Assembly: GCF_044324875.1 (NCBI RefSeq)
Contig: NZ_CP172185.1
Length of the DNA stretch: 64,000 bases
Strand: one strand, 5' to 3'
From: Escherichia coli
GTDB lineage: Bacteria; Pseudomonadota; Gammaproteobacteria; Enterobacterales; Enterobacteriaceae
Part shown: in pieces, positions 2,031 through 17,095 of the stretch
Numbering within the stretch: position 1 is the first letter of the stretch
How the letters are laid out: the number at the start of each line of letters is the position of its first letter
The notes under the pieces: model-generated
What the model saw: the letters and a program-made list of their open reading frames with translations, nothing else
Told to the model about the DNA's origin: nothing
Databases searched by the model: none
Position numbers and translations under genes: made by a program

Positions 2031-3257
2031 ATGAATTACGAATTACTGACCACTGAAAATGCCCCGGTAAAAATGTGGACCAAAGGCGTGCCGGTAGAGG
2101 CCGATGCGCGTCAGCAACTTATTAATACGGCGAAGATGCCGTTTATTTTCAAACATATTGCGGTAATGCCTGATGTACACCTGGGTAAAGGTTCCACCAT
2201 TGGTAGCGTGATCCCAACCAAAGGGGCGATTATTCCGGCGGCGGTGGGCGTGGATATCGGTTGTGGAATGAACGCGCTGCGTACCGCGTTAACGGCGGCA
2301 GACCTGCCGGAAAACCTGGCGGAGCTGCGTCAGGCAATTGAAACTGCCGTGCCGCACGGGCGTACTACCGGGCGTTGTAAACGTGATAAAGGCGCATGGG
2401 AAAACCCGCCTGTTAACGTCGATGCGAAATGGGCTGAGCTTGAAGCCGGTTATCAGTGGTTAACGCAAAAATATCCCCGTTTCCTTAACACTAACAACTA
2501 TAAACACCTGGGAACGCTGGGAACGGGTAACCACTTTATTGAAATCTGCCTTGATGAGTCGGACCAGGTGTGGATTATGCTGCACTCCGGTTCACGCGGA
2601 ATCGGTAATGCCATCGGAACTTACTTTATCGATCTGGCGCAAAAAGAGATGCAGGAAACGCTTGAAACATTGCCGTCGCGTGATCTGGCGTACTTTATGG
2701 AAGGTACGGAATACTTTGATGATTACCTGAAAGCCGTGGCCTGGGCGCAGCTTTTTGCCAGCCTTAACCGCGATGCGATGATGGAAAACGTGGTAACGGC
2801 GTTGCAGAGCATTACGCAGAAAACGGTCAGACAGCCACAAACGCTGGCGATGGAAGAGATCAACTGTCACCACAACTATGTGCAAAAAGAACAGCACTTT
2901 GGTGAAGAGATCTACGTGACGCGTAAAGGCGCGGTGTCTGCGCGTGCTGGTCAATATGGAATTATTCCCGGTTCGATGGGGGCGAAGAGCTTTATCGTCC
3001 GTGGGCTGGGAAATGAAGAGTCGTTCTGTTCGTGCAGCCACGGTGCCGGGCGGGTTATGAGCCGTACTAAAGCGAAAAAAATGTTCAGCGTGGAAGATCA
3101 AATTCGTGCCACCGCGCATGTGGAATGCCGTAAAGATGCCGAAGTGATCGACGAAATCCCGATGGCGTATAAAGATATTGATGCGGTGATGGCGGCACAA
3201 AGCGATCTGGTGGAAGTTATCTATACCCTGCGTCAGGTGGTGTGCGTAAAAGGATAA
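2031..3257 (+). CDS. rtcB: RNA-splicing ligase RtcB
   Basis: 408-aa ORF recognised as RtcB family; immediately followed by rtcA. Confidence 0.95.
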   Translation: MNYELLTTENAPVKMWTKGVPVEADARQQLINTAKMPFIFKHIAVMPDVHLGKGSTIGSVIPTKGAIIPAAVGVDIGCGMNALRTALTAADLPENLAELRQAIETAVPHGRTTGRCKRDKGAWENPPVNVDAKWAELEAGYQWLTQKYPRFLNTNNYKHLGTLGTGNHFIEICLDESDQVWIMLHSGSRGIGNAIGTYFIDLAQKEMQETLETLPSRDLAYFMEGTEYFDDYLKAVAWAQLFASLNRDAMMENVVTALQSITQKTVRQPQTLAMEEINCHHNYVQKEQHFGEEIYVTRKGAVSARAGQYGIIPGSMGAKSFIVRGLGNEESFCSCSHGAGRVMSRTKAKKMFSVEDQIRATAHVECRKDAEVIDEIPMAYKDIDAVMAAQSDLVEVIYTLRQVVCVKG

Positions 3258-4277
<1,020 letters not shown>

Positions 4278-4290
4278 TATAAAGATGTAA

Positions 4291-4314
4291 GCCGGATCCG
4301 ACGTATTATCCGGC
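4291..4314. terminator. hairpin between convergent rtcA and malT (candidate bidirectional terminator)
   Basis: gccggat-N10-atccggc inverted repeat in the 42-bp gap between two convergent stops. Confidence 0.35.
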
Positions 4315-4319
4315 TAAAC

Positions 4320-7031
<2,712 letters not shown>

Positions 7032-14490: not shown

Positions 14491-15982
<1,492 letters not shown>

Positions 15983-16010
15983 GCAGCTTTTGAAATGGCG
16001 AGACAGAATT

Positions 16011-16184
16011 TTACTGACTCGCCGCAGCCAACTCTTCTTCTGACACCCCGGTAAAACGCATGATGTCCGCAAGAGGGACTCCGGATTACAGCATTCTTTT
16101 GGCGATATCCGGGGCTTCCAGGCGTCGATCCAATAAATAACCAATCAGGTAACTAATAAGATATTCTCTTTCTGCATCTGTCAT
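16011..16184 (-). pseudogene. degenerate duplicate of the rpnA C-terminal (RpnS-like) module with an in-frame stop
   Basis: Minus-strand translation MTDAEREYLISYLIGYLLDRRLEAPDIAKRML-stop-SGVPLADIMRFTGVSEEELAAASQ aligns with the rpnA C-terminus MTIAERL...[32 protein letters not shown]; nucleotide similarity visible by eye. Confidence 0.5.
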
Positions 16185-16201
16185 TAAAACCATCCTTTAC
16201 G

Positions 16202-16366
16202 TTATTGATGATTTATTTCAGCAAGGTCTTCAACCGTCAGGCTGGTAAATCGCAGAACGTCCTCAAGAGAGACTCCGGCATCCAGCATGGTTTTGGCAAT
16301 ATTTAGGGCGTTGGTACGTATACCTTTCTGAAACCCCTCTTGCCGCAATCTTTCCGCAATAGTCAT
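16202..16366 (-). CDS. candidate in-frame internal small protein (RpnS-like, 54 aa) nested in the 3' end of rpnA
   Basis: Internal ATG ([11 protein letters not shown]...) preceded by AAGGAGAG 6 nt upstream on the coding strand; same frame and stop as rpnA. Confidence 0.45.
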
Positions 16367-17095
16367 TAAACTCTCCTTGTGTTTCGGTGAACGTTCGGCA
16401 ACACCGTCGATAAAATCGTTAAAACGTACCGCATCGCCAGTTTGCAGTATGTAATTAAACAGCCCTTTGATTTGTCTGTCATTAGCGTATCCACTACTTA
16501 ATAAGCAGGCCATTTGCTCTACCAGCCCCATCAGGTCGCGTTGACGAATATGTTTTTGAATTAACTCCAGTAGTGCCATACGTCGGTGCTGCATGATTTC
16601 ATCATCAGGCATGACGGTGACATCAATCAGCGGAAATGCAGAGGCATAAAGCTGCCTTGCCAGGTTGGGATCGGCGAAACAATCAAGCCAACACAGCGAA
16701 TAGGGATAGGGGCTTTCAATACCGTGGTAAAACAACAATGGCACCACCATCGGCAAGGTTTTGTATCCGGCATCCAGGTGATTTTGCATTGCGGCAATGG
16801 CGTAGCGCATCATGCGAAATGCGATCAGTTTGTTTGAGGTGCTTTGATGTTCAATCAGACAATAGATGTATCCTGGTCCTTGTTCCGTTTTCACCGACCA
16901 CAGCACGTCGGAATAGCTTTCACGCAGATCGTCATCAATAAAGCTGCTCGACTCCAGCTTGAGGGTTTTCATATCACAGAGCGCGTGAATAGGTGCCGGT
17001 AAATGGAACGCAAGAAAATCGCGCGCCGTCTCCGGTTGGCGTAAAAAGAGTTTGAACAGCGCATCGTGTGGGGTGGAACTCTGCTTTTTGCTCAT
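16202..17095 (-). CDS. rpnA: Rpn-family recombination-promoting nuclease (transposase_31 / PD-(D/E)XK-like)
   Basis: 297-aa ORF recognised as YhgA/RpnA. Confidence 0.85.

Follow-up and report, generated by a model that had tools for sequence, protein, structure and literature searches.

A probable nonsense-inactivated, stand-alone RpnS gene downstream of rpnA in Escherichia coli

RpnS proteins arise by translation from start sites within rpn genes and act as inhibitors of the full-length nuclease, which is toxic (Zhong et al. 2023, PNAS, PMC10400941). For RpnA-S of E. coli K-12 the internal start has been demonstrated by experiment, and the specificity of RpnS proteins depends on the number of four-residue repeats in helix 1 (PMC10400941). 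A stand-alone second copy, rpnSs, lies downstream of rpnE, where it is called ypaA and its synthesis has been demonstrated, and, in some strains, downstream of rpnC; such copies have been lost by deletion or by fusion with an rpn N-terminal domain (PMC10400941). The main text of Zhong et al. does not name rpnA among the genes with an Ss copy (PMC10400941).

We analysed a stretch of 64,000 nucleotides of E. coli DNA (contig NZ_CP172185.1; hereafter the window) in which rpnA, ending in its in-frame RpnA-S unit (unit 1), is followed by a second unit of the same type (unit 2). We consider it quite likely that the second unit is a vestigial, nonsense-inactivated gene of the rpnSs type, which could be named rpnA-Ss, and thus a dead or dying spare antitoxin gene. 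As in the pairs rpnE-ypaA (rpnE-Ss) and rpnC-rpnC-Ss, unit 2 is a stand-alone RpnS copy directly downstream, on the same strand and with its own start; it is related to the unit upstream of it, varies in its four-residue helix-1 repeats, and appears to have been lost in other lineages through fusion to the rpn N-terminal domain. It differs from these pairs in being linked to rpnA and in carrying, nearly fixed in E. coli, a TAA codon that leaves helix 1 alone. Its repeats are also of another kind, being hydrophobic (YLIS/YLIG/YLLD), whereas the type that has been described is "one hydrophobic plus three charged or glycine".

The gene order around the stretch is gntX, bioH (plus strand), rpnA (minus strand), feoC, feoB, both in the list of open reading frames and in an identical annotated record (NZ_CP082355.1). 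The rpnA gene is annotated as such in that record, and its product scores 675 bits against the NCBIfam RpnA equivalog model, for which the cut-off is 583. The bioH and rpnA stops are separated by 219 nt, and this spacer is 100% identical to that of E. coli strain VCSW5. The features are as follows.

15212..15982, plus strand: bioH, convergent with rpnA and ending 28 nt short of the unit-2 stop (list of open reading frames and annotation)
16011..16085, minus strand: unit-2 tail, 24 in-frame codons and a TAA behind the nonsense codon, for helices 2 and 3; orthologous to the 3' end of K-12-type rpnA
16086..16184, minus strand: unit-2 head, a 32-codon ORF closing with the derived TAA (16088-16086), for helix 1 of an RpnS-type protein
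16128..16163, minus strand: three tandem four-residue (12-nt) repeats, YLIS-YLIG-YLLD, in unit-2 helix 1 (sequence reading)
16185..16201, minus strand: 17-nt spacer from the rpnA stop to the unit-2 ATG, with AAGGA at 16197-16193 (sequence reading)
16202..16366, minus strand: unit 1, the in-frame RpnA-S unit, 54 codons and a stop, homologous to the K-12 RpnA-S start
16128..16333, minus strand: 206-nt segment missing from the K-12-type rpnA allele (pairwise and multiple alignments; ends uncertain by about 4 nt within a GGGG microhomology)
16202..17095, minus strand: rpnA, recombination-promoting nuclease (the RpnA-L toxin), 297 codons (ORF)

The internal ATG of unit 1 is at 16366-16364, with the SD sequence AAGGAG at 16378-16373. 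In unit 2, the AAGGA lies 8 nt 5' of an ATG at 16184-16182, which opens a frame of 32 codons (MTDAEREYLISYLIGYLLDRRLEAPDIAKRML) ending at TAA 16088-16086; the tail codons (SGVPLADIMRFTGVSEEELAAASQ) then run in the same frame to a closing TAA at 16013-16011. The sequence-only reading had described this minus-strand arrangement of a 32-codon ORF, a stop, further codons and a second stop, with an AAGGA before the ATG at 16184, and inspection of the sequence bears out both the reading and its coordinates. A 35-codon version starting from the ATG at 16193 was rejected, as it overlaps the SD sequence and does not use the homologous start. The 17-nt spacer is common to 19 of the 21 two-unit loci examined, and the remaining two, L007 (CGTTAAGG) and L094 (AAGGATAG), are each one base off. 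A scan of positions 15850-16700 predicted neither an intrinsic terminator nor a sigma-70 promoter. Since none is predicted between rpnA and the unit-2 ORF, the two are probably co-transcribed.

The counterparts of positions 15983-16201 are unevenly annotated. They are blank in most RefSeq genomes, while PGAP calls the stretch a pseudogene in some ("transposase; internal stop; missing N-terminus").

Unit 2 is homologous to unit 1. Local nucleotide alignment of unit 2 with the last 199 nt of rpnA, the comparison to which the sequence-only reading had tied its claim of a diverged repeat, gave a score of 58, far over the 500 shuffled controls (16.1 +/- 2.1, maximum 30). At the protein level the score was 82, compared with 20.8 +/- 4.2 for 2000 shuffles (z = 14), and the two units are 48% identical in amino acid sequence. 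The likeness extends over the SD sequence and the start (AAGGAGAGTTTAATGAC in rpnA, AAGGATGGTTTTAATGAC in unit 2). The repeated unit is therefore the whole RpnS cassette, comprising SD, ATG, three helices and stop, and not the coding tail alone. In keeping with an rpnSs gene, unit 2 has its own SD sequence and ATG, lies on the same strand directly downstream of rpnA, and begins at a start homologous to the internal start of RpnA-S.

When the nonsense codon is restored to give a 57-residue ORF, residues 23-57 match residues 15-49 of RpnA-S in the Protein Data Bank (7TH0) with E = 4e-12, and unit 2 matches positions 258-292 of the NCBIfam RpnA model with E = 1e-10. The 32-residue product alone matched no NCBIfam model. 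A Pfam-A scan of the restored 57-mer gave no significant match, the library evidently being without HTH_Rpn_C (PF27070); assignment to that family rests on a precomputed table for the intact orthologues, together with the PDB and NCBIfam matches.

We searched for orthologues with a protein query in which the stop codon had been replaced. Proteins of 57 residues assigned to HTH_Rpn_C (P0001-P0010) came from E. ruysiae and from some assemblies under the name E. coli. Their intact 57-codon genes lie 17 nt downstream of an rpnA of 297 or 293 codons, between feoC and bioH, colinear with the window. In this respect unit 2 resembles the stand-alone small proteins with DUF4351 (PF14261) or HTH_Rpn_C domains, such as these intact orthologues with their precomputed PF27070 assignment; it differs in that the copy in the window has an internal stop. 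The sequence-only reading had offered the 32-codon ORF as a possible functional orphan small protein. The ORF is no orphan gene in its own right but the 5' part of a 57-codon gene, which E. ruysiae and other Escherichia have intact at the same position.

The intact loci and E. albertii have CAA (Gln) as codon 33, where the window has TAA. The TAA is therefore a derived C-to-T change, and it disables the window copy relative to its intact orthologues: an ORF complete for the three-helix bundle is interrupted at this codon in the window and continuous in E. ruysiae and the other Escherichia orthologues. The two-unit spacer is present in 853 of 5426 complete E. coli genomes. We counted the TAA among them with a 55-mer set so that every 28-nt seed word spans the variable base, and found it in 852 of the 853 and the CAA version in none. 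In all 15 two-unit E. coli loci that were read directly, the TAA is accompanied by an intact SD sequence, ATG and 32-codon frame. Among E. coli carriers the TAA is essentially fixed.

Several related loci show further rearrangements. One assembly with an intact 57-codon gene (L090, GCA_000407765.1) has IS-like ORFs (HTH_28, rve_3) at 200-1460, between feoC and rpnA. The rpnA gene itself is inactivated in some strains: its N-terminus is missing in E. coli A20 (L003), it is frameshifted in E. coli VCSW7 (L094), and it is split into 200 and 109 residues in Logan SRR11484490 (L088). In E. coli E2348/69 (L099, NZ_CP059840.2), rpnA has 293 codons, with a 12-nt deletion (TNAL) in helix 1 of unit 1 and an S-to-P change; Zhong et al. 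(PMC10400941) tie four-residue changes in length of this kind to specificity.

Helix 1 of unit 2 also varies in repeat number. One allele of the truncated ORF (P0041) has 36 residues, with one extra YLIS repeat. In E. albertii (L093, CP034212.1, 2501-2737; P0012-P0014) most of rpnA is deleted, and the unit-2 repeats and tail follow in frame directly on RpnA residues 42-69; the three alleles differ by 0, 1 or 2 extra 27-nt YLISYLLDR units.

We modelled the restored 57-mer with AlphaFold2, using an alignment of 13 sequences (pLDDT 83.5). The model has helices at residues 3-33, 38-45 and 49-55, and its top PDB match is RpnA-S (7TH0). From the helices and this match, the nonsense codon 33 coincides with the end of helix 1. 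According to the model, the 32-residue product would thus consist of helix 1, the dimerisation helix, alone, with the helix-turn-helix part made up of helices 2 and 3 missing. The aligned parts of the restored ORF and of K-12 RpnA-S are highly identical, and the same three-helix bundle is predicted for both. In contrast to RpnA-S, which lies inside rpnA and shares its sequence with the C-terminus of the toxin, unit 2 is outside rpnA and truncated, and its helix 1 is 8 residues longer and very different. The three hydrophobic repeats YLIS, YLIG and YLLD give it little resemblance to helix 1 of the resident RpnA.

To describe how the two units evolve, we counted variable codons over 20 two-unit loci, 13 from E. 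coli and 7 from other Escherichia and metagenomes; these are counts and not tree-based estimates. Unit 1 had 8 synonymous and 0 non-synonymous variants (over 19 loci), and bioH had 92 and 37. Unit 2 had 8 synonymous and 23 non-synonymous variants, divided into 4 and 12 in the head (codons 1-32) and 4 and 11 in the tail. This differs from unit 1 (Fisher test, p = 2e-4) and from bioH (p = 6e-6), and is near the non-synonymous to synonymous ratio of about 3:1 that unconstrained sequence would give. For the E. coli TAA set by itself the counts are small, 5 synonymous and 7 non-synonymous variants, and codons 1-32 have 1 and 3 within E. coli. In the protein database there are many missense alleles of the 32-mer, the 36-residue allele described above, and about ten frameshifted alleles (P0011, P0015, P0039, P0044-47, P0051). 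The unit-2 copy thus looks to be evolving near-neutrally, a pattern that fits the view of the sequence-only reading that the stretch may be a decayed duplicate: a paralogue of the intragenic RpnA-S unit with an internal TAA. Lineages with the intact gene also have the non-synonymous excess, and some of it may come from diversifying selection on helix 1 and not from decay; Zhong et al. inferred that the helix-1 repeat region is strongly selected to vary (PMC10400941).

We did not take the open 32-codon frame as a sign of function, since a 96-nt ORF is expected to be open by chance at 2-3% divergence.

These results suggest the following history. The ancestral Escherichia locus would have consisted of rpnA with its intragenic RpnA-S and, 17 nt further on, a stand-alone 57-codon RpnS gene with its own SD sequence and ATG. 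In the E. coli lineage that kept both units, a C-to-T change would have turned codon 33 from CAA (Gln) into TAA, leaving a still translatable 32-residue peptide that corresponds to helix 1, with helices 2 and 3 cut off from the bundle. K-12 and most of the other E. coli would have lost 206 nt between GGGG microhomologies, so that unit 1, after its first 11 codons, runs in frame into the middle and tail of unit 2; the separate gene would have disappeared and rpnA would have gained a new C-terminus. The helix-1 stub may still be made, since the SD sequence, ATG and frame are intact in 15 of 15 loci, and we infer that the truncated product is non-functional.

The 32-residue peptide could on the other hand be functional. 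Translated in coupling with rpnA, it would pair with the dimerisation helix of RpnA-L or RpnA-S, either as a minimal antitoxin or to modulate how the nuclease is released. Its SD sequence (AAGGA, 8-nt spacing) and ATG are homologous to the validated start of RpnA-S, and helix 1 is the dimer interface of RpnA-S (PMC10400941). The ORF begins 17 nt past the rpnA stop with no terminator predicted between them, nearly all carriers (852 of 853) share the TAA allele, and the frame is open in each of the 15 loci read. Against this, helix 1 of unit 2 (EYLISYLIGYLLDRRLEAP) is strongly unlike that of the resident RpnA, and a single extra four-residue repeat is enough to abolish cross-inhibition (Zhong et al., PMC10400941). 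Codons 1-32 also have the non-synonymous excess given above, both across loci and within E. coli, as well as the many missense, repeat-number and frameshift alleles, and the 32-mer is without an NCBIfam match. We therefore regard a functional peptide as unlikely. A literature text search for the peptide sequence found no match.

A bolder form of the same idea, and to our minds an improbable one, is that the near-fixed TAA represents adaptive trimming, with a helix-1 peptide that is coupled to rpnA and acts on the assembly of RpnA-L and RpnA-S. If this were true, titration of RpnA-S or bridging of dimers by the peptide could, for instance, determine how readily this anti-phage toxin-antitoxin system is triggered, and the stranded tail would be kept as a recombination substrate for new rpnA C-termini, such as that of the K-12 allele.

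The reading of unit 2 as a vestigial rpnSs-type gene also bears on the K-12 allele of rpnA. The spacer was matched in 5373 of the 5426 complete E. coli genomes, and over its full length in only 853. In the remaining genomes only the bioH-proximal ~135 nt (15983-16117) match, at ~91%, and they do so inside the annotated rpnA. In the K-12 derivative S17-1, for example, rpnA has 292 codons and ends 28 nt from bioH. In K-12 and the majority of E. coli, the orthologue of the unit-2 tail is thus the true 3' end of rpnA itself. The 32-codon ORF is missing from K-12, the strain from which the published ribosome-profiling and tagging data come. The sequence-only reading had made its case depend on the spacer being conserved in closely related genomes. 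This does not hold for the head of unit 2, which is missing from about 84% of complete E. coli genomes, but the fusion allele explains the absence, and the feature is not spurious.

The junction can be followed in a metagenomic two-unit locus (L092, protein P0010), whose unit 2 reads ...YLLGEQSKALHIAKIMLESGV..., the exact K-12 middle segment, including a K-12-like EQSKALH, in an unfused state. Around the junction, unit 1 has ...CAGGAGGGG followed by TTTCAG, the L092 unit 2 has ...TTATTGGGG followed by GAACAATCC, and K-12 has ...CAGGAGGGG followed by GAACAATCC. The K-12 allele therefore corresponds to an L092-like one from which the 206 nt lying between two GGGG runs have been removed. The missing segment holds the unit-1 body with its stop, the spacer, and the unit-2 SD sequence, ATG and head; without it, codon 20 of unit 2 follows in frame on codon 11 of unit 1. 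A second, independent fusion of the two units occurs in P0018, like P0041 from metagenome and Logan contigs, where NALNIAK of one is joined to IMLESGV of the other; this join shows that unit 1/unit 2 fusions recur.

Distant Rpn orthologues align with unit 1 at their C-termini, as far as residue 295-296, which makes unit 1 the native end of rpnA. The unit-2 head with its YLIS repeats is present at the same locus in E. ruysiae and E. albertii. Because of these two observations and the recurrence of fusion in P0018, we infer that the two-unit state is the older and the K-12 state derived, a polarity that rests on parsimony and few outgroups, one of which, E. whittamii, carries the fused K-12-type tail. 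A contig scan with RpnA returned mostly distant paralogues (Photorhabdus, Xenorhabdus, Erwinia), with E. whittamii as the sole useful outgroup; the informative Escherichia loci came from protein look-ups. In the E. whittamii locus (L008, NZ_JACSQI010000009.1, ~3145-4500), an inserted element breaks rpnA after residue ~215; the element has a long ORF, transposase- or TnpB-like in appearance. On this polarity the C-terminus of K-12 RpnA, and hence the crystallised RpnA-S, is probably a chimera of the resident unit and the downstream copy.

Displaced "orphan" C-terminal toxin/immunity modules occur downstream of rhs and cdiA, and alleles of these genes differ by recombination between the resident and the downstream module. 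The rpnA locus is similar: a C-terminal module, either an earlier one or an alternative, follows closely on the gene, and here too alleles differ through recombination of resident and downstream modules. It is unlike them in that the module is an antitoxin or regulatory domain and not a toxin tip, and the evidence favours a deletion-fusion over displacement by an incoming module.

The opposite polarity would make the single-unit rpnA of K-12 ancestral, with the 206-nt piece inserted through recombination with a foreign rpn locus, so that the remnant would be the displaced original C-terminus, as with the displaced Rhs and CDI toxin tips. The K-12 type is indeed the majority, at about 84% of complete genomes, E. 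whittamii is also of this type, the boundaries of the 206-nt segment are sharp, and rpn genes are known to move horizontally (PMC10400941). Such an insert would, however, have to be a fragment of a two-unit array that already existed, since it would hold the 3' part of one RpnS unit, a spacer and the 5' part of another. The YLIS-repeat head at the same locus in E. albertii and E. ruysiae, the unfused unit 2 of L092 with the exact K-12 middle segment, the alignment of unit 1 to distant Rpn C-termini, and a junction in GGGG microhomology, as expected of a deletion, all speak against it as well, and we find an inserted segment hard to credit.

A resemblance between the units by chance or low complexity, without common ancestry, has only their shortness in its favour and can be dismissed in view of alignment scores 14 to 20 standard deviations over the nucleotide and protein shuffles, the match to 7TH0, and the colinear intact orthologues with a precomputed HTH_Rpn_C assignment.

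The feature is largely explained by published biology; the linkage to rpnA, the nonsense truncation in E. coli and the hydrophobic repeats set it apart. With unit 2 read as a vestigial rpnSs-type gene, rpnA can be added to the rpn genes with a present or former stand-alone RpnS copy on their downstream side, and the stretch should be marked uniformly as an rpnSs pseudogene in genome annotation. About one in six E. coli genomes (853 of the 5426 complete ones, including UTI89 and E2348/69) has a non-K-12 RpnA C-terminus together with the remnant, and the differing C-terminus affects the extrapolation of K-12 results to other strains. The most useful by-product is the reading of the K-12 RpnA C-terminus as a probable fusion of units 1 and 2. 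The locus offers a concrete, datable case in which the hypervariable antitoxin domain of an anti-phage toxin-antitoxin system appears to have been remodelled by short-homology deletion between tandem units.
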